In this document: in pieces, positions 8,298 to 64,000 of the stretch
Position numbering within the stretch: the stretch's first letter is position 1
Layout of the letters: every line of letters begins with the position of its first letter
Origin: Vicinamibacterales bacterium
Lineage (GTDB): Bacteria > Acidobacteriota > Vicinamibacteria > Vicinamibacterales > JAMQPK01
DNA: 64,000 bases
Assembly: GCA_963784045.1 (NCBI GenBank)
Contig: CAWAPZ010000003.1
Coordinates: 174,143-238,142 of the forward strand
Direction of reading: 5' to 3'
Notes under the pieces: generated by a model
The model's database searches: none
Told to the model about the DNA's origin: nothing
What the model saw: only the letters and a program-made list of their open reading frames with translations
Translations under genes and position numbers: made by a program

Positions 8298-9464
8298 ATG
8301 GCGAACGCTGCCGTGTGCGTACCGGTGATGTACGTCGTGCTGGGCTTCAGCCCAGCCGTGATCGCACAGCAGTACACCTTCGAGGAGGTCGCCGCCGGTC
8401 TGAAGCATCAGGATGCCGGTATTCGGCTCAGGACGATTCAGATACTGAAGGACGCCGACTACGCGGAAGCCACCGCTCCGATCGGCACCGCGCTCACCGA
8501 CGTAGACGATCGCGTCCAGCTCGCGGCCATAGACGCCGAACGATCCCTGTTTACGACCCGCGTGGTTCCGCGCAAGAAGAAAGTCGCCCTGATCGTGGAA
8601 GTCAGAACCGTAGCGGGCGGGGACGCTGCCGCGACAGGACAGCTCGCGCTGAAGGCGCGGAGAGTGCCTCCGGAGTTGTTGTCGGGTCTTGCCGTCGCGC
8701 TTCGTGACAACAACGCTCACGTTCGAGCCGAAGCCCTCAGCCTCGCTGCGCTCCTGGGGCCGGTTAGCTGCGCACCAGATGTCCAGCGTGCTTCCGATTC
8801 GAGCGCGTGTGACGGCATCGGCAATGGCCTGATCGACGGCATCAACTCGCGCGATCCGGTGCTGCGCCGAGCTGCGATGGAGGCAATCGGACAAGTACGC
8901 TACGCGAATGCGGTTCAGGCCCTGTCGGATCAGCTGAGCTACCACCAAAAGGGTCCCGACGCCCTGGCAGCCCTCGAGGGGCTGTCGGCGATCGGACATG
9001 CGACCTCCGTGTCGATTTTCGAGAATCAGTTGAAGAGCTCGAACGCCGACATGCGGCGGCTTGCCGTCGCCGGGTTGGCGCGCGCCGGATATCGCGAGGC
9101 GCTCGGGACAATCCAGGACATGGGACAGACGGAACACAACGACGGCGTATTGCTGGCGATGCACTACGCGAACGTCAAGCTCGGTGCTATTGACGCGAGC
9201 CTGCAGCAGCTCGTGGTATCCCTGGGCATTCCAGCGCTCCGCCCGCTGGCGTTGGCATACCTGCTGGACCTGTCGACGTCGCACGCTCAAGGCCTGGCGG
9301 CCTCGCTCACGAATCCCAGCGCGGACATCCGGCGCCTGGTCGCCGACATTCTCGGGTTCTCGCGAAACGCCAACGTGATTATCCAGCTCGGGGCGGCGGC
9401 ACAAGAGTCCGATCCCGATGTCGCCGGCGCCGCACAGCAGGCGATCGCGCGGCTCCATCTGTAG
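8298..9464 (+). CDS. HEAT/PBS-lyase-like repeat protein with an N-terminal signal-like hydrophobic segment
   Basis: Repeated roughly 30-aa units of the D..VR..A..AL type. ATG at 8298 gives MANAAVCVPVMYVVLGFSPAVIAQQ. An alternative ATG at 8241 would overlap the uvrA stop and translate a heptamer array. Confidence 0.65.
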   Translation: MANAAVCVPVMYVVLGFSPAVIAQQYTFEEVAAGLKHQDAGIRLRTIQILKDADYAEATAPIGTALTDVDDRVQLAAIDAERSLFTTRVVPRKKKVALIVEVRTVAGGDAAATGQLALKARRVPPELLSGLAVALRDNNAHVRAEALSLAALLGPVSCAPDVQRASDSSACDGIGNGLIDGINSRDPVLRRAAMEAIGQVRYANAVQALSDQLSYHQKGPDALAALEGLSAIGHATSVSIFENQLKSSNADMRRLAVAGLARAGYREALGTIQDMGQTEHNDGVLLAMHYANVKLGAIDASLQQLVVSLGIPALRPLALAYLLDLSTSHAQGLAASLTNPSADIRRLVADILGFSRNANVIIQLGAAAQESDPDVAGAAQQAIARLHL

Positions 9465-10093: not shown

Positions 10094-11250
<1,157 letters not shown>

Positions 11251-11877: not shown

Positions 11878-12476
11878 TGGACGTCCCGCTCCGCCAGCCC
11901 GTCCACGGTTGGATCGAAGTGATCACCGGCAGCATGTTCAGCGGAAAAAGCGAGGAGCTTATTCGCCGGCTTCGCCGAGCGCAGATCGCGCGGCAGCGGG
12001 TGCAGATCTTCAAGCCGGCCTTCGACAACCGGTTCGCGGGCTCGGACATCGTCTCGCACAGCGAGATGCGCATACAAGGCGTCAACGTCGGCAGCTCGGC
12101 GGAACTGCTGAGGCTGGTCAACGACGACACCGAGGTGGTCGGCATCGACGAAGCGCAGTTTTTCGACAAGGAGTTGCCGGCCGCCTGCACGCAGCTTGCA
12201 GGCAGCGGCAAACGCGTCGTCGTGGCGGGCCTCGATACCGATTACCTCGGCCGCCCGTTCGAGCCGATGCCGGTCATGATGGCGATTGCCGAATATGTGA
12301 CAAAGACGCATGCCATCTGCATGGTCTGCGGCAATCCTGCGAGCCACACGCAGCGCCTCGTCGTCAGCGATGAGCGGCTTCTGCTCGGCGCGACGGGCAC
12401 TTACGAGGCTCGGTGTCGGAAGTGTTTTGATCCCACGCTGGCATCGGCGGGAAGAGAGATTGAAAGTGAAAAGTAG
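11877..12476 (+). CDS. tdk: Thymidine kinase
   Basis: P-loop [11 protein letters not shown] and a C-terminal zinc-binding pair (CMVCG..., CRKC). The start overlaps the efp stop. Confidence 0.92.
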
Positions 12477-12524
12477 AAAGTGAAAAGTAGAGAGTAGAAA
12501 GTCTAGAGTCCAAATTCCAAAGTC
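12455..12524. repeat. 7-bp tandem array, about 10 units: GAAAGTG AAAAGTA GAAAGTG AAAAGTA GAGAGTA GAAAGTC TAGAGTC CAAATTC CAAAGTC
   Basis: Read directly. Spans the last codons and stop of tdk and ends 5 nt before ATG 12530. Confidence 0.9.
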
Positions 12525-19412: not shown

Positions 19413-20251
19413 ACGAGTTGCCTCCTTCATCCTCCGACTTCGAGTCCGCGCCGGACGCCTACTCGGTGAAGCTCGATTCCTTCGAAGGCCCCCTCGATCT
19501 CTTGATTCACCTGATCAAGAAGAACGAGGTGAACATCTACGACATCCCTATCGCCCTCATCACCCGGCAGTATCTCGAGTACATCGAGATGATGAAGGAG
19601 CTGAATCTCGATACGGTCGGCGAGTTCCTGGTGATGGCGGCGACGCTGATTCACATCAAGTCGAAGATGCTCCTGCCGCGGCCGGAATCGGCCCAGGAAG
19701 GCGCGCCCGAGGAGGATCCGCGCGATGCGCTGGTGCGCCGGCTCCTGGAACACCAGAAGTTCAAAGCCGCCGCGGAGCTGCTCCACGAGCGCGCCGTGTT
19801 GCGCGGCGCGCAATGGATTCGTCCGGACGGGCGCATCGCCGAGATTGCCGGCGACGAGTACGCCTACGAGCCGGAGGTCGAAGTCGATCTCTTCAGCCTG
19901 CTCGCGGCGTTCCGCGGCGTCCTCGAGCGAGCCAAGCAGCGGCCGAAAATGCTGCTGCCGCCCGAGGAAGTGCCAGTCGAGGTCCGGATCGATCAGCTGC
20001 TTGCGATGCTCTCCGAAACCGAAGCGTGCGGCTTCGAGGATCTGTTTGCGAAGGATGACTCGCGCGGTGGAATGATCGTGACATTTCTCGCGCTGCTCGA
20101 GATGATCCGCCTGAAATTGATACGTGTCTTTCAGACGATGGCATTCGGACCGATTCGGGTCTATAAGAGAGCGCGGCCGGTTGACGCACCGGTGCCGATT
20201 GGCGATCCTGAGGCAGTTAAAAACGAAAAACGAAAAGCGGAAAACGAATAA
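19409..20251 (+). CDS. scpA: Segregation and condensation protein A
   Basis: FEGPLDLLIHLIKKNEVNIYDIPIA is the typical ScpA N-terminus. Followed by scpB. Confidence 0.9.
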   Translation: MNELPPSSSDFESAPDAYSVKLDSFEGPLDLLIHLIKKNEVNIYDIPIALITRQYLEYIEMMKELNLDTVGEFLVMAATLIHIKSKMLLPRPESAQEGAPEEDPRDALVRRLLEHQKFKAAAELLHERAVLRGAQWIRPDGRIAEIAGDEYAYEPEVEVDLFSLLAAFRGVLERAKQRPKMLLPPEEVPVEVRIDQLLAMLSETEACGFEDLFAKDDSRGGMIVTFLALLEMIRLKLIRVFQTMAFGPIRVYKRARPVDAPVPIGDPEAVKNEKRKAENE

Positions 20252-20270
20252 CGAACAGCGAAAACGAACC
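20219..20270. repeat. 7-bp tandem array, about 7 units of AAAACGA type
   Basis: CGA/GCG recurs at 20224, 20231, 20238, 20245, 20252, 20259 and 20266. Covers the scpA C-terminal codons and stop. Confidence 0.9.
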
Positions 20271-20312
20271 GATTCTAGATTCCAGATTCCCGATTCCAGA
20301 TTCCAGAGTCAA
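20271..20312. repeat. 7-bp tandem array: GATTCTA GATTCCA GATTCCC GATTCCA GATTCCA GAGTCAA
   Basis: Read directly. Abuts the AAAACGA array. Lies upstream of scpB. Confidence 0.92.
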
Positions 20313-21452: not shown

Positions 21453-21562
21453 CACCGCGGAGACGCGACGCCGCCACGGATCCTGAACAGAAGTCAGGAG
21501 AATCAGGAGAATCTCTGCAGGATTCCCGCTGGGCGATGGGCGTCATCCAGAACGTACTCAAC
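21453..21562 (+). repeat. Copy 2 of the roughly 110-bp dispersed element (head CACCGCGGAGACGC..GGATCCTGAAC, tail CCAGAACGTACTCAAC)
   Basis: Direct repeat of 20995-21105. The two copies flank the 95-aa membrane protein gene. Confidence 0.8.
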
Positions 21563-27736: not shown

Positions 27737-27856
27737 GGCCGCCGCAGGGCCGACCTGAAGGTGAGAGGCATGGCCGACCTGAAGGTCGGCACGACGATTG
27801 ACGTGACGCGACACCCTGTACGTAGTGCTGGCCTTTAGGCCAGCCCAAGGAAAAAA

Positions 27857-28212: not shown

Positions 28213-28255
28213 GATCCCCAATCCCCAATCCCGAATCCCTGATCCCCAATCCCGT
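28213..28255. repeat. 7-bp tandem array, C-rich on the + strand: GATCCCC AATCCCC AATCCCG AATCCCT GATCCCC AATCCCG
   Basis: Read directly. Fills the ihfB/HIT spacer up to ATG 28257. Confidence 0.92.
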
Positions 28256-34990: not shown

Positions 34991-35067
34991 CTGAACCTGG
35001 AATCTAGAAACTAGAATTTGGGAACTAGAATCTAGAAACTGAAATCTGGGAACGGAATCCAAAAACA
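34991..35067. repeat. 7-bp tandem array, 11 units: CTGAACC TGGAATC TAGAAAC TAGAATT TGGGAAC TAGAATC TAGAAAC TGAAATC TGGGAAC GGAATCC AAAAACA
   Basis: Read directly. Begins 1 nt after the DUF4159 gene stop. Confidence 0.92.
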
Positions 35068-35345: not shown

Positions 35346-36979
<1,634 letters not shown>

Positions 36980-36983
<4 letters not shown>

Positions 36984-37035
36984 ACCTGGAATCTAGAATC
37001 TAGAATCTAGAATCTGGAATCTAAAATCTAGAACT
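36980..37035. repeat. 7-bp tandem array, 8 units: CTGAACC TGGAATC TAGAATC x3 TGGAATC TAAAATC TAGAACT
   Basis: Read directly. Occupies the whole spacer between the two mutase subunit genes. Confidence 0.95.
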
Positions 37036-43323: not shown

Positions 43324-43433
43324 CGCATTTTCGATTTCGCTGTAGTTGATGTAGGCCGGGTCCTTCGGACCCGGCAGCGGAGGCGGGTCGGCACGACCCG
43401 CTCTACGTACTACAGCGAAATCGAAAATGCTCT
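43322..43433. repeat. Structured element bounded by inverted repeats (MITE-like or ncRNA-like)
   Basis: A 22-nt perfect inverted repeat (43325-43346 versus 43409-43430) encloses two perfect GC hairpins: GCCGGGTCC-TTC-GGACCCGGC and GCGGGTCG-GCA-CGACCCGC. Confidence 0.85.
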
Positions 43434-44793: not shown

Positions 44794-45471
44794 TCAGCGG
44801 GTCTCGGCTGCTTTCACGAATTCCTCGAACAGCGAGCGGAACTCGCCCGTCCGCCAGAAGTTCTCGGGGTGCCACTGCACCGCGATACAGAAACGACTCG
44901 CGGGGCGCTCGATCGCTTCGATGACGCCATCGGGCGCGGTCGCGGAGACGGTGAATCCTCCTTCGGTCTTGTCGACGGCCTGGTGATGGCGGCTGTTGAC
45001 CTGGAGTACTTCGCCGTCGACGAGCTCTTCCTGCATGACGCGCGCGAGCACGCTGCCGGGCGTGACCCAAACCTCGTGCGCGATCGCGAACGGCGGGGCA
45101 TCGACCTGATGGCCGAGCGCCTGGTTCACCTGCGCCGGAATGTCCTGCGTGAGTGTTCCGCCGGCGGCGACGTTGACGACCTGTAGTCCGCGGCACACCG
45201 CGAGCAGCGGCGTGTTGCTTGCGAGCGCAAGCTTCGCAAGCGCAAGCTCGAACGCGTCGCGCGCCGCGTCAGGTTCGTTCGTCTTTGGATGTCGCGTGTC
45301 GCCGTAGTGGGCGGGGTCGATGTCGCCGCCGCCGGTAAAGAGCACGCCGTCGAGACCGTCGAGTGTGGGCGCTGCATCCATCGAAAGGACACGCGGGTCG
45401 CCGCCGGCCCGCCGAATGGATTCGACGTAGTCGGTCAACCGGTTGGATGGCGTGATGCCGATGACGGCCAT
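44794..45471 (-). CDS. Class I glutamine amidotransferase / gamma-glutamyl-GABA hydrolase family (peptidase C26)
   Basis: LAVCRGLQVVNVAAGGTL, VNSRHHQAV and VQWHPE. Confidence 0.85.
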   Translation of the reverse strand: MAVIGITPSNRLTDYVESIRRAGGDPRVLSMDAAPTLDGLDGVLFTGGGDIDPAHYGDTRHPKTNEPDAARDAFELALAKLALASNTPLLAVCRGLQVVNVAAGGTLTQDIPAQVNQALGHQVDAPPFAIAHEVWVTPGSVLARVMQEELVDGEVLQVNSRHHQAVDKTEGGFTVSATAPDGVIEAIERPASRFCIAVQWHPENFWRTGEFRSLFEEFVKAAETR

Positions 45472-47537
45472 TACATTCTCGGTGGTACGGCAATGCCCAT
45501 GAGATCAAGCGCGCGCGTCAGCTGCGCACGCACGTACGCCACGCCGGCGGCGCGCCAGAGCCGGGCGGCCGCCTGCTCCTCGTTGAGGATCGGATACCGA
45601 TGATAAAAGCCGTTGAACATCTGTGCCAGCCCGAACGCGTATTTTGCGAGCACCGAGAACTCCAGCGTCCGAACGACTTGCTCGACGATTTCATCGAGGC
45701 GCGAGGCTTCGAGGATGAGCGCCCACAAATCATGGCTGCCTCCCTCGCCAGTCAGCTCGGCAGCGTCGATCTCGCCAAGCGTCGCAAACACCGCGGCTTC
45801 GTCGACCTTGTCGCGGTCGCGCAGCTTGGCCAAAATGTTCTGGGCCCGAACGACAGCATACTGTAGATACGGGCCGCTTTCACCCTCGAACGCGAGGGCT
45901 TCGTCTATATCGAAGGCAATGATCTTCGTGCGCGAATACTTCACCATGAAATAGCGCACCGCGGCGACCGCGATCATGTCGGCGATGCGCCGATGCTCCC
46001 CGGTGGCGAGCTCTGAATTGCGCCTGGCCACTTCGGTTTCGGCGCGCGCGATGAGGGTGTCCAGCAGGTCATCGGCCTTCACGCCCTGTCCCTTGCGACC
46101 CGACACATCGACGAACCCGCGCTTGTCATCGGCCGCATCGGCGGCGAGGTATCCGAGCGCTCGCGCTGCAGCGTTCGAGAGTGCCACCATTTCGTACGAG
46201 AAGTGCGTTGCCCGCTCGGCTTGCTCGGCGTAGCCAAGAGTCCGAAGCGCCTGTTTCAGGAGCTTCTGAAGATACGATTGCCGCACATCGATGACGTTGT
46301 AGGTCGCGTCGGCGCGGCCGAATGGGGGATGCGAAGCATCCCCGGGTGTCTGCGAAGTCGACCACAGGACTTCGCCGTTTGTCCGGGTTCCGAACCGGCA
46401 ATAGTAGAAGTCGCGCCCCAACAGCCCGAGCTTCCAGAACTGATAGGCGATGTCCTTGCCGACGTACGTAACGGTGCCGTTCGATCGGACAATAACCTTT
46501 TCGCGTTCGCTTTCTCCGCTTTCCCTAATCCCTAATCCCTCATCCCCAATCCCTAGTCCAGCATCTCCAATCCCTAATCCCACATCCCCAATCCCTTCAG
46601 AGGCAGGCTCGTCCTCCTCGATCTTCATGACCCAGCAACCAGCCAGTTTGCCTTCAGTCTGGAAATACACCGCGCCTTTCTCTTTCAAGATCTCGAAGGC
46701 CCGCGCCCAGAACTGCAGCCGCAGAATGTGGCCTTCCCACGTCAGAAGGTCGTAATCCACGTTCAGCCGCGCCATCGTCTTCAGGTGGCATCGGACGATG
46801 CGTTCGGCGATGAACGCGGCAATGTCTGAGGTCGCCGTGCCGCCGTGCTCGATATCGTGCAACGTCGCCGTGCGAATCTTGAGGCGCTCTTTGTCTTCGT
46901 CGTACCACTGCGTAACGCGCGCGTAGAGATCCCAGCAGTAATAGTCGAACCGCGTCGAGTCCGCGATGGCGCGGATGTCCTCGATCGTCTTGTCTTCGAG
47001 CTCGCGAAATCCGACGACGACGTCGGCCACCTGGACGCCGGTGTCGTCGATGTAGTTCTGCACCTCGACGGGAACGCCTCGGAAGCGCTGCACGCGTACG
47101 AGCGTGTCGCCCAGCGCGGCATTGCGAATATGGCCGATGTGCGCCGCCTTGTTCGGGTTGATGGCCGTGTGCTCGACGATGGCTTTTTGGGGTCTGACCC
47201 CCGTACCGGTACGGGGGTCAGACCCCGATGGCACGACTTTCTTGACGAAGGCGATGCGATCTAAATAGATGTTCAGGTAGCCGTTCGGCGCGGCCTCGAC
47301 GCGAACGACGCCGTCCAGAGGCCCGAGGGCCGCAGCGAGCTCCTGTGCGATGACGCGCGGCGCTTTGCGCAGGCGGCGCGCAAGCTCGAAGGCCACGGGC
47401 GTTGCGAGATCGCCGAGCTCGCGCTTCGGCGGATATTCGATCGGCAGTTGTGGCAGTGCGTCAGGCGGCACCTGATAAAGGTGCTGAAGCGTCGTCGATA
47501 ACCGCTCTCGCAACTGTTCGTGAATTGGAAGAATCAT
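45471..47537 (-). CDS. argS: Arginine--tRNA ligase, carrying two unusual in-frame inserts
   Basis: 688 aa. HIGH-type motif NPNKAAHIGH; class I core; C-terminal anticodon-binding domain ending in M. Confidence 0.93.
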   Translation of the reverse strand: MILPIHEQLRERLSTTLQHLYQVPPDALPQLPIEYPPKRELGDLATPVAFELARRLRKAPRVIAQELAAALGPLDGVVRVEAAPNGYLNIYLDRIAFVKKVVPSGSDPRTGTGVRPQKAIVEHTAINPNKAAHIGHIRNAALGDTLVRVQRFRGVPVEVQNYIDDTGVQVADVVVGFRELEDKTIEDIRAIADSTRFDYYCWDLYARVTQWYDEDKERLKIRTATLHDIEHGGTATSDIAAFIAERIVRCHLKTMARLNVDYDLLTWEGHILRLQFWARAFEILKEKGAVYFQTEGKLAGCWVMKIEEDEPASEGIGDVGLGIGDAGLGIGDEGLGIRESGESEREKVIVRSNGTVTYVGKDIAYQFWKLGLLGRDFYYCRFGTRTNGEVLWSTSQTPGDASHPPFGRADATYNVIDVRQSYLQKLLKQALRTLGYAEQAERATHFSYEMVALSNAAARALGYLAADAADDKRGFVDVSGRKGQGVKADDLLDTLIARAETEVARRNSELATGEHRRIADMIAVAAVRYFMVKYSRTKIIAFDIDEALAFEGESGPYLQYAVVRAQNILAKLRDRDKVDEAAVFATLGEIDAAELTGEGGSHDLWALILEASRLDEIVEQVVRTLEFSVLAKYAFGLAQMFNGFYHRYPILNEEQAAARLWRAAGVAYVRAQLTRALDLMGIAVPPRM
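46523..46599. repeat. 7-bp tandem array inside argS, 11 units: CCCTAAT CCCTAAT CCCTCAT CCCCAAT CCCTAGT CCAGCAT CTCCAAT CCCTAAT CCCACAT CCCCAAT CCCTTCA (+ strand)
   Basis: Read directly. The G-rich strand is the argS mRNA. Encodes GIGDVGL GIGDAGL GIGDEGL GIRE. Confidence 0.95.
47189..47226. repeat. Perfect 38-nt palindrome (19+19) inside argS
   Basis: GGGGTCTGACCCCCGTACC / GGTACGGGGGTCAGACCCC. The arms are exact reverse complements with no spacer. Confidence 0.95.
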
Positions 47538-61862: not shown

Positions 61863-61897
61863 GGCTTTAGGCTCTAGGCTTTAGGCTTTGGCTAAAG
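61863..61897. repeat. 7-bp tandem array: GGCTTTA GGCTCTA GGCTTTA GGCTTTG GCTAAAG
   Basis: Read directly. Lies in the divergent mrcA/dnaK spacer. Confidence 0.85.
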
Positions 61898-62009: not shown

Positions 62010-63914
62010 ATGAGCAAAATCATCGGCATCGATCTCGGCACTACCAATTCAGTCGTCGCGGTCATGGAGGGCGGGGAGCCAACCGTCATCACGAATCCAG
62101 AAGGCGGACGCCTGACGCCGTCCGTCGTGGCGTTCACGAAAGCGGGGGAGCGCCTCGTCGGCCAGGTCGCGAAGCGGCAGGCCGTGACGAATCCGGAGAA
62201 CACCGTCTTTTCGATCAAGCGCTTCATGGGACGCAAGTTCGATGAGGTGAACGAAGAAATGAAGATGGTGCCGTTTCGCGTGATACGCCCGGCCAACGGC
62301 GACGTGCGGATCGAAGCCGGTGCCAAGGAGTCCTCGCCTCCTGAGATCTCCGCGATGATTCTGCAGAAGCTGAAACAGGCGGCTGAGGAGTATCTCGGCC
62401 AGCCGGTGACCAAGGCCGTGATCACCGTCCCTGCGTACTTCAACGACGCCCAGCGCCAGGCCACGAAGGATGCGGGGCAGATCGCCGGCCTCGAAGTGAT
62501 GCGTATCGTCAACGAGCCCACGGCCGCGGCGCTCGCCTACGGGCTCGACAAGAAGAAGGACGAGACGATTGCCGTGTATGACTTCGGGGGCGGCACGTTC
62601 GACATCTCGATTCTCGAGGTCGGTGAAGGAGTCGTCGAGGTCAAGTCGACCAACGGGGACACGCACTTGGGAGGAGACAACCTCGACCAGAAAGTCATCG
62701 ACTGGATCGCGGCTGAGTTCAAGAAGAGCGACGGCATCGATCTCACGAAAGATCGCATGGCCCTTCAGCGCCTCAAGGAAGCCGCCGAGAAGGCGAAGAT
62801 GGAGCTCTCGTCGGTGATGGAAACCGACATCAGCCTGCCGTTCATCACGGCCGATGCTAGCGGCCCAAAGCACCTGGCGATGAAGCTGACGCGCGCGAGA
62901 TTCGAGCAGCTCGTCGAAGATCTGCTTCAGCGCACGGTAGGCCCGACCAGGCAGGCCCTCAAGGATGCCGGCGTCGAACCGGGCAAGATCGACGAGGTCG
63001 TTCTCGTCGGCGGGTCGACGCGCATTCCACGCGTGCAGGCGATCGTCAAAGAGCTGTTCGGGAAGGAGCCGCACAAAGGCGTGAACCCCGACGAAGTGGT
63101 CGCCGTGGGCGCGGCGATTCAGGCGGGCGTGCTCGCGGGCGAAGTGAAGGATCTGCTGCTCCTGGACGTGACGCCGCTGTCGCTCGGGATCGAGACGCTT
63201 GGAGGCGTGATGACGACCCTGATTCCCCGCAACACGACGATTCCCACACGCAAGAGCGAAGTCTTCTCGACGGCGGCCGACAACCAGACCAGCGTCGAAG
63301 TGCACGTGCTGCAGGGCGAGCGGCCGCTCGCGCGCGACAACCGCACGCTCGGCAGGTTCCATCTCATCGGTCTTCCACCGGCGCCGCGCGGGATCCCGCA
63401 GGTCGAAGTGACGTTCGACATCGACGCGAACGGCATCGTCAACGTCCAGGCGAAGGATCTGGGCACCGGCAAGGAGCAGAAGATTACGATCACTTCTTCG
63501 AGCGGCCTCAGCAAAGACGAGGTCGACAAGATGATGCGGGAGGCCGAATCGCACGCCGACGAAGACAAGAAGCGGCGGGATGAAATCGAGGCGCGCAACC
63601 GCGCCGACCAGACGGTCTATGCCGCCGAGCGAATGTTGAAGGACACCGGCGACAAGCTTTCGAGCGCCGACCGTACGGCCGTCGAATCCGCGATCGAAGA
63701 AGCCAAGAAGGCCAACGCGGGCACGGACATCTCGGCGATCAACGCCGCGATGGAGGCGTTGAACAAAGCGCAGCACGCCGCGGCTGAGAATCTTTACAAG
63801 CAGGCCGCCCAGACGCCCGGCGGGACCGCGCCATCCCCCGAAGACGGCGCGTCGCAACCCAACGGCCAGAAAGAAGGGGACGTGATCGACGCGGAAGTGG
63901 TGGATGACAAATAG
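62010..63914 (+). CDS. dnaK: Molecular chaperone DnaK (Hsp70)
   Basis: [26 protein letters not shown] and the full-length collinear Hsp70. Confidence 0.97.
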
Positions 63915-63948
63915 GGATTAGGGATTGGGATTAGGGATTAGGGATTTG
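63914..63948. repeat. Roughly 7-bp tandem array: GGGATTA GGGATT GGGATTA GGGATTA GGGATTT
   Basis: Five GGG runs separated by 3-4 nt. Fills the dnaK/dnaJ spacer and overlaps the dnaJ TTG. Confidence 0.92.
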
Positions 63949-64000
63949 GATCTATACGAGCTCCTCGGAATCGCGCGGGGCGCGACGCTGATTGACATCA
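63946..64000 (+). CDS. dnaJ: DnaJ, N-terminal J-domain start (partial; runs off window)
   Basis: TTG 63946, then DLYELLGIARGATLIDI, the canonical J-domain opening. Located directly after dnaK. Confidence 0.6.
   Translation, partial: MDLYELLGIARGATLIDI

Follow-up and report, generated by a model that had tools for sequence, protein, structure and literature searches.

A REP-like palindrome translated within the inter-domain linker of argS in Vicinamibacterales

We analyzed a 64,000-nt stretch of contig CAWAPZ010000003.1 (positions 174,143 to 238,142 of assembly GCA_963784045.1, a Vicinamibacterales bacterium), which we call the window, and in particular a perfect 38-nt palindrome that is translated in frame within argS, the gene for arginine--tRNA ligase (ArgRS). 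We lean towards reading this palindrome as a tolerated inverted doublet, similar to repetitive extragenic palindromic (REP) elements, that was captured once in a permissive linker of the enzyme and inherited since, and that is decaying or has been replaced in some lineages.

The palindrome consists of GGGGTCTGACCCCCGTACC followed directly by its exact reverse complement, GGTACGGGGGTCAGACCCC, with no spacer, just as an initial annotation of the window had described it. It is nested, with the layout GGGGTCTGACCCC-CGTACCGGTACG-GGGGTCAGACCCC (Table 1), and at 100% complementarity it is the longest inverted repeat of the window. By our own arithmetic, a perfect 19+19 palindrome has a chance expectation of approximately 64000 x 4^-19 = 2e-7. 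A search for recurrence of the 19-mer arm, suggested by the initial annotation, found only a single site in the window at up to 3 mismatches (shuffles expect 0.01 matches), and there is no other copy of the palindrome in the window or in the flanks of the other loci that bear it. The predicted fold is one long hairpin of the whole doublet. In the sense RNA, a stem of 17 bp closes the 4-nt loop CCGG, with a folding energy of -38 to -39 kcal/mol (z = -6.3 against shuffles), and for the DNA strand the fold is -23.5 kcal/mol (z = -7.0). The 13-mer unit GGGGTC-W-GACCCC has 6+6 complementary bases around one base, and alone it could fold into only about 5 bp with a 3-nt loop. For comparison, REP units of the GTAG superfamily are stem-loops with stems of 5–13 bp and loops of 2–20 nt, and a genome has many dispersed copies of them, mostly extragenic. 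On the plus strand, an open reading frame (ORF) at 46845-47264 encodes an antisense peptide, LGSDPRTGTGVRPR, that is the same as the one in argS. This is a trivial result of the symmetry, although it could mislead gene callers.

The argS product has Pfam matches to Arg_tRNA_synt_N at residues 8-92, to the class I catalytic domain tRNA-synt_1d from residue 116, and to DALR_1. Its best PDB relatives are 2zue and 1iq0 (the P. horikoshii and T. thermophilus ArgRS), and its nearest database proteins carry Vicinamibacterales or Acidobacteriota names. In the reading direction of argS, the palindrome starts at the last base of the Ser104 codon, ends at the first base of the Gln117 codon and encodes (S)GSDPRTGTGVRP(Q), a 13-residue loop rich in Gly, Pro and Thr, just ahead of KAIVEHTAINPNKAAHIGH. 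It fills exactly the gap that separates the first two Pfam domains and is closely followed by the strand KAIVEHT, which leads into the HIGH region, so the in-frame position just before HIGH given in the initial annotation is correct. We placed the linker from the Pfam boundaries and from PDB sequence alignments, which are gapped and poorly aligned over this stretch; an AlphaFold2 model from a 50-sequence alignment had a mean predicted local distance difference test score of 57, too poor for use.

Linkers of the GSDP..GVRP type occur in approximately 28 of 120 homologs (77–93% identity). We had DNA for further loci of this palindrome type in 13 assemblies from ENA, JGI and NCBI (L001, L002, L018, L030, L098-L101, L108, L111 and L178-L180). 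The 18-nt left arm, GGGGTCTGACCCCCGTAC, is identical in all 13, which are related Vicinamibacterales. The right arm is identical in eight of them, has one or two uncompensated changes in four (L111, L178, L179 and L180) and is lost in L099. We considered whether the left arm is really more conserved than the right and rejected this as an artefact of selecting by the GSDP peptide, as alleles with only a right-arm remnant exist (P0023 and P0027). L178 (~10359-10376) and L179 (~9043-9060), which are far apart on the tree of these proteins, carry the same right-arm change, GTC to GGC (GGGGGTCAGACCCC to GGGGGGCAGACCCC); this is either a recurrent mutation beside a G run or a shared allele. The centre varies more. 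The two GTACs are separated by CG in the window, whose copy alone is perfectly symmetric, and by AG or TG elsewhere. Some orthologs have expanded centres that carry AGGTACAG or CGGTACCAGTACCG, with GTACNG hexamer additions, and the arms reach 24–25 nt in L002. The centre variation reads as slippage of GTACNG, which encodes Thr-Gly.

These assemblies also bear on whether the palindrome is real. It could be an assembly error such as a fold-back chimera, which the initial annotation had listed as a possible refutation, or a chance by-product of selection on the peptide. There is one sign of trouble at the site: in L030, a long-read metagenome-assembled genome, there are 13 bases instead of 12 between the 13-mers (10312-10350), which produces a +1 frameshift of argS inside the palindrome. 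The extra base probably arose at the hairpin through an error of sequencing or assembly, and the site should be regarded as error-prone for assemblers. However, the 13 other assemblies come from varied projects and platforms and have the same arm, and in all but L030 the frame is intact. Because independent assemblies carry the same arm, we rule out an artefact. As for coincidence, the chance expectation is very small (see above), and selection on a peptide cannot produce fixed synonymous sites. We give this explanation almost no credence.

The initial annotation suggested that the palindrome is a recent insertion, of roughly 13 residues, and neither part of this was supported. The palindrome is old, as it is common to lineages that differ by 16–51% at 4-fold degenerate sites. 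Approximately 130 orthologs at 63–67% identity have linkers that are not palindromic (best inverted-repeat score of at most 10, versus 18–25 for the palindrome type), but these linkers are only 1–4 residues shorter. Since the plain linkers of distant orthologs are of similar length, the palindrome is not a net insertion. It occupies the variable part of the linker instead of adding 13 residues to it.

The same linker holds other repeats in sister genomes. Within the close clade (enzymes 77–93% identical) we found at least five repeat types in it: the palindrome, two families of GTAG-tagged REPs, heptamer arrays, and a putative EKGTRPLF-type palindrome. The L003 linker is a GTAG REP dimer of GTAGTGCCGACCTTYAGGTCGGC with its tags inside, translated as ADLKVGTT..VVPTFRSA. 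In L019 there is a REP singlet, GTAGGCCGGGTCCTATTGGACCCGGC, and L021 and L110 have dimers of that same family with tags outside, translated as RRAGPFGPAAAPGPEGPGLR. The linkers of L023, L025 and L102 are arrays of CGATCGN/CGACCAT heptamers, translated as DDGRS.. or HRPTIDH... EKGTRPLF is found in the linker of two proteins, and its back-translation would be another palindrome. Comparing L021 with L026 (TTCGTAC|GTGC..) gives what resembles a 57-nt insertion after GTAC, with no duplication visible, in a pair that is not isogenic. Linker type requires at least 39 changes on a tree of 121 proteins, versus 67 with shuffled labels, and close sister pairs differ; the tree was built by plain neighbour joining from metagenomic sequences after the variable columns had been dropped, and recombination is inseparable on it from repeated gain and loss. 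The L021 comparison and the tree, like the intergenic copies of the REP families, fit repeated insertion.

The window has intergenic relatives of these linker REPs (Table 1). One of them, a GTAG-tagged dimer downstream of argS, is enclosed by a perfect outer inverted repeat of 22 nt, GCATTTTCGATTTCGCTGTAGT / ACTACAGCGAAATCGAAAATGC (43325-43346 and 43409-43430). The initial annotation considered hairpins at 43355-43399 to be related to the palindrome. This is partly borne out: the stem core GGGTC/GACCC is common to the palindrome and the GCCGGGTCC REP family, and the hairpins, which have no more than this core in common with the palindrome, belong to the GTAG REP dimer of the family in the L019, L021 and L110 linkers. 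The link is real but indirect.

To look for relatives of the palindrome itself we counted motifs in 2.07 Mb of Vicinamibacterales loci. Out of 16 palindromes of the form GGGGNN-N-NNCCCC, only GGGGTCNGACCCC occurs in this DNA, with 27 copies, 6 of them outside argS. All six lie in apparent non-coding spacers, the copy in L091 is GTAC-tagged, and A/T runs accompany some of the copies outside argS. Doublets of the 13-mer core are also present in unrelated contigs of 51–70% GC. For example, a P2-like prophage (best match: Pseudomonas phage) has a GGGGTCTGACCCC-GTAC-GGGGTCAGACCCC doublet between two of its tail genes, the one for the tail tube and the one next to it. A single 50.9-kb contig of 51–55% GC (IMGVR GVMAG-S-404869-41; L007-L009, L012, L014 and L016) has at least seven GGGGTCAGACCCC..GGGGTCTGACCCC doublets, which makes the 13-mer a high-copy repeat in some genomes. 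A full-text literature search for the 13-mer and an 11-mer returned only unrelated primer and virus papers.

There are published precedents for REP-type DNA within genes. Di Nocera, De Gregorio and Rocco (2013; PMC3733652) reported REPs that are wholly inside ORFs, over half of them dimers or grouped, with tRNA synthetase genes among the hosts. In Opitutus terrae the partners of GTAG-17/19 dimers are 1–2 bp apart. Our palindrome is similarly a short, GC-rich inverted dimer with almost no spacer that is in frame within an ORF and encodes a short extra loop. Its tags-inside arrangement is that of the TT dimers, as the text of that paper defines the types, and true GTAG REPs of two families occupy this very linker in sister genomes. 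It differs in having a GTAC tag instead of GTAG or CGTC, a 6-bp stem around a single base, 13 encoded residues instead of the typical 20–30, conservation at synonymous sites across species, and a full unit that so far is at a single locus.

Two other known systems are close but not the same. REP doublets forming hairpins (REPINs), in systems with REP-associated tyrosine transposases (RAYTs) (Bertels and Rainey 2011, PMC3116915; Ton-Hoang/Messing 2012, PMC3479197), also have two inverted units that form one long hairpin, and this lineage has a single RAYT gene (a Y1 transposase) flanked by its REPs. However, the units next to the nearby RAYTs are GTAGTGTCCGGCTTYAGCCGGAC, another family, and not those of the palindrome; and REPINs are extragenic and abundant, while the palindrome is intragenic and, in its full length, apparently unique. 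Rickettsia palindromic elements (RPEs) are in-frame palindromic elements (PMC10969869, citing Ogata et al. 2000), and like them the palindrome is selfish-looking palindromic DNA translated in frame in an essential housekeeping gene, where the protein fold can accommodate it. RPEs, though, are about 100–150 bp long and form multi-copy families with a conserved peptide in Rickettsia, and ours is 38 nt and found at full length only in argS.

Several observations weigh against a captured REP-like doublet. Across the 2.07 Mb, the full 18-nt arm is confined to argS except for an intergenic site in L091 that differs by 2 mismatches, and it has no exact match in viral contigs; in the sampled DNA the exact element is neither demonstrably multi-copy nor mobile. 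The tag is GTAC, not GTAG, in 14 of 14 sequences. The accepted degenerate forms of GTAG are GYAG, GYRG, GTRG, GTMG and GTGG, and a C at the fourth position is not among them (PMC3733652); one related 11-mer copy (L032) does carry GTAG. A 13-mer with a 1-nt centre makes a poor hairpin alone. Among the orthologs compared there is no target-site duplication and no clean pair of empty and filled alleles for the palindrome type, and the REPs that flank RAYT genes are of a different family. In addition, one would expect the synonymous sites of a selfish element that is only tolerated to drift, and those of the arms do not, which points to some constraint. We therefore term the palindrome REP-like and do not file it as a REP. 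For the REP- or RPE-like origin that the initial annotation suggested, the GTAG REP singlets and dimers in sister linkers and the in-frame precedents (PMC3733652; PMC10969869) speak in its favor, and the near restriction of the arm to argS speaks against it.

We tried and rejected some other candidates. A miniature inverted-repeat transposable element would leave a target-site duplication, and none flanks the palindrome: the flanks, ..GTGCCANN and AAAAAG/AAAAGG/AGAAAG, have no direct repeat that is consistent across orthologs, and the copies of a GCCATCG direct repeat that flanks the palindrome in the window are out of frame, lie 49 nt apart and are not kept in orthologs. The inverted repeat of Tn3, which we take to be about 38 bp with a GGGG start, an internal TAAG and a 5-bp target duplication, matches only in the first 10 bases (GGGGTCTGAC); our arms are 19 nt and there is no 5-bp duplication, so we regard the likeness as coincidence. 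No intrinsic terminator was found on either strand.

The conservation of the arms was tested with 8 full-length coding sequences of the palindrome linker type. We picked these by protein similarity and peptide, not by nucleotides, so the test is conditional on the peptide but not circular. At conserved residues, 200 of 251 4-fold sites vary (mean pairwise difference 0.39, range 0.16–0.51), but in the arms eight of nine are invariant, including the T-ending codons TCT, CGT and GGT. These three and AGA are rare in argS. Codons at conserved residues are invariant 26% of the time across the gene, versus nine to ten consecutively in the arms. By length, the two arms rank 2nd and 5th among the invariant nucleotide runs of argS, yet they lie within its least conserved protein segment, and the codons immediately upstream have diverged freely. 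The statement of the initial annotation that protein-level selection does not account for the symmetry is supported by this, as the arm codons are rare ones and are identical at synonymous sites across species. There are no compensatory changes among the compared arms, and hence no covariation evidence for pairing as such. Each third codon position in one arm pairs with a first position in the other, so a change that preserves the structure always alters the peptide. There are two candidate causes for the continued identity of the arms: selection that acts on the motif or the hairpin, and templated correction within the hairpin together with constraint on the peptide.

The first of these candidates would make the palindrome a functional cis-element, with the stem kept because the hairpin or the 13-bp duplex motif serves argS and the repeat-like look secondary. 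It might act as a ribosome pause at the domain boundary, as an RNase III-type processing or stability site, or as a binding site for a dimeric protein. The invariance of eight of nine arm sites, where 20% would be expected, and of the consecutive codons fits this well. So does the variation being concentrated in the centre (the predicted loop) and the immediate flanks having diverged when the arms have not, and the identical 13-mer core in unrelated bacteria suggests sequence-specific recognition. However, most orthologs, many from the same clade plus the ~130 distant ones, are without any palindrome here, which means that no hairpin is required at this position. There are no compensatory double changes, and one arm has uncompensated changes or is lost in L099, L111, L178, L179 and L180. 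By our own reading, the absence of RNA-neutral G-U transitions also means that RNA pairing alone is no explanation. We found no terminator-like site (a GC-rich hairpin plus T/U run) at the palindrome on either strand and no promoter signature, and Rfam gave no match in the window at the gathering score; at a permissive E-value there was only sub-threshold noise of miRNA or hairpin type at the palindrome. We consider a functional cis-element, and each of the roles proposed for it, unlikely.

Templated correction also figures in a second rival reading, a local origin that needs no mobile element. Quasipalindrome template-switch mutagenesis, or inverted duplication, is an established replication-error mechanism, and a snap-back template switch primed at the small palindromic GTAC/CCGG centre could have mirrored one GGGGTCTGACCCC..GTAC segment already present in the linker, giving a perfect inverted duplication. 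The arms would afterwards stay alike through hairpin-templated correction. The palindrome has the perfect arm symmetry, short palindromic centre, lack of a target-site duplication and slippage-type centre changes that match this mechanism. The exact 18-nt arm is found only in argS (the intergenic site in L091 has 2 mismatches), the centre is itself a short palindrome that expands by slippage, so the stretch is prone to replication errors, and a one-arm allele exists in L099. Templated correction plus weak peptide constraint would also freeze both arms, given how third and first positions pair. On the other hand, the mechanism does not predict that the same core motif turns up at further loci and in different phyla, or that the arms are identical across species. 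The one-arm allele (P0014/L099) is nested in a two-arm clade and looks like a deletion, and the prophage intergenic region, which is unrelated, has the same doublet of a T-type 13-mer, GTAC and an A-type 13-mer. The 13-mer core is dispersed in these genomes, and in sister lineages the linker took up ready-made REPs. Such a local, mirrored origin strikes us as quite unlikely.

The captured, tolerated doublet would have come about as follows. Two copies of a dispersed hairpin motif, GGGGTC-W-GACCCC, were presumably joined tag-to-tag through a GTAC-containing centre and acquired once, by a transposition-like capture, in the ancestor of a Vicinamibacterales subclade. The doublet would have replaced the previous linker with little lengthening and been inherited vertically afterwards, with the centre evolving by GTACNG hexamer slippage. 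In some lineages an arm may then have decayed, or the whole linker may have been overwritten by GTAG REPs or heptamer arrays. The linker appears to tolerate almost any sequence, and a RAYT locus and REP cluster 1–4 kb away may favor insertion. The element would be tolerated but not needed.

That neighboring locus is best seen in L180. There, 2.2 kb downstream of argS and with GTACGTAGTGTCCGGCTTYAGCCGGAC units on both sides, lies a Y1_Tnp gene whose 170-aa product has an HLH motif of the HUH type. With tblastn we found RAYT homologs or remnants 1–4 kb downstream of argS in seven close-clade loci (Table 1), and where we inspected the flanks (L020, L030, L110 and L180) tandem and inverted GTAGTGTCCGGCTTYAGCCGGAC units surround the gene. 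When the count is limited to loci that have 4 kb or more of flank downstream, a RAYT is present in 5 of 19 close versus 0 of 51 distant Vicinamibacterales. The position of the gene is conserved, consistent with vertical inheritance. There is no RAYT gene in the window, where the REP composite at 43325-43430 apparently holds its place downstream of argS, as judged by relative position only. The density of GTAG-tagged hairpins is only about twice as high in close-clade loci as in distant ones (7.1 versus 3.5 per 100 kb). The proximity of RAYT and REPs may favor local insertion into argS.

A bolder version of this is that the ArgRS linker is a landing pad for single-strand hairpin elements owing to the RAYT/REP locus 1–4 kb off, and that the GGGGTCWGACCCC doublet, in contrast to the other inserts, was co-opted, with its stem now under sequence-specific purifying selection as a cis-element for a conserved factor. 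Recognition by such a factor is proposed because the same 13-mer is kept in unrelated phyla. We regard this combination as rather improbable, but if it were true, it would provide a natural example of REPs that hop locally, and in frame, into an essential gene.

Table 1. Positions of argS, the palindrome and its parts, and other repeats and transposase genes. Positions are in the window unless a locus is named.
Feature	Position	Strand	Basis or remark
argS (arginine--tRNA ligase), 688 aa, host of the palindrome	45471..47537	minus	Pfam and PDB matches
Codons Ser104-Gln117 of ArgRS (SGSDPRTGTGVRPQ), hypervariable linker	47187..47228	minus	Between Arg_tRNA_synt_N and the catalytic domain
Perfect palindrome, two 19-nt arms	47189..47226	translated from minus	Repeat search, shuffles, folding
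13-nt sub-palindrome GGGGTCTGACCCC (GGGGTC-T-GACCCC), core motif	47189..47201		Also outside argS in related genomes
12-nt palindromic centre CGTACCGGTACG, (GTACNG) hexamers	47202..47213		Variable in orthologs; encodes Thr-Gly repeats
13-nt sub-palindrome GGGGTCAGACCCC (GGGGTC-A-GACCCC)	47214..47226		
TCCCYAA heptanucleotide tandem array, ~10.7 copies, translated GIGDVGLGIGDAGLGIGDEGLGI	46522..46596	minus	Second repeat-derived segment of argS; second hypervariable loop
Intergenic GTAG-tagged REP dimer GTAGGCCGGGTCCTTCGGACCCGGC .. GCGGGTCGGCACGACCCGCTCTAC	43351..43406		REP family of the L019, L021 and L110 linker inserts
Intergenic REP dimer, tags inside, GCCGACCTGAAGGTCGGCACGAC .. GTACGTAGTGCTGGCCTTTAGGCCAGC	27773..27844		Related to the L003 linker REP family
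RAYT-type Y1 transposase genes, some in pieces	L180 6869-7381; L020 14153-14571; L030 14202-14679; L110 5775-6173		
RAYT-type Y1 transposase genes, some in pieces (continued)	L104 7207-7475; L031 12299-12499; L023 14183-14314		

The arms of the intergenic dimer at 27773-27844 differ by paired changes (CCGACC..GGTCGG versus CTGGCC..GGCCAG), so each unit keeps its own hairpin. Upstream, at 27749-27763, there is a partial third copy. GTAC stands before the right unit (GTACGTAG), as it does in the REPs that flank RAYT genes.

We also noticed two other places in argS. In the proteins P0020 and P0022, the second variable loop (approximately residues 310-345 of the window protein) carries EGFGEPRRSAHEADAQRRGLGI, which resembles another translated GC-rich palindrome, and this loop may take up REP-like DNA too. 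The longest invariant nucleotide run among the 8 orthologs is TATCTACAGTATGCTGTCGT at 45850-45869 (minus strand, encoding YLQYAVV). Its codons mostly end in A or T (TAT, CTA, TAT, GCT), whereas 4-fold sites in these genes are mostly G or C, and it may be a conserved cluster of rare codons or an embedded nucleotide element.

Many short tandem arrays of 7-nt units are present in the window, at 12462-12502, 20219-20307, 21489-21513, 28214-28254, 35000-35053, 36977-37033, 61863-61893 and 63912-63951. Their units differ (GAAAGTA, AAAAACG, GATTCCA, ATCCCCA, GAATCTA, GGCTTTA and TAGGGAT), and most are outside the mapped ORFs with high GC at third codon positions and are apparently intergenic; the one in argS is translated as GIGDxGLGIGD. 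Together with the CGATCGN linker arrays of L023 and L025, this looks like a lineage-wide phenomenon of heptanucleotide repeats.

In-frame palindromic repeats in housekeeping genes, such as RPEs and intragenic REPs, are already known, so the bare observation of one in argS is not new biology. What we did not find described is the turnover of multiple families at one linker, the adjacent RAYT, and the conservation of one insert across species at the nucleotide level. The empty, filled, decayed and replaced alleles of this linker form a natural series, which could reveal by what route REP-type DNA gets into coding sequence and persists there, and whether such inserts become constrained.

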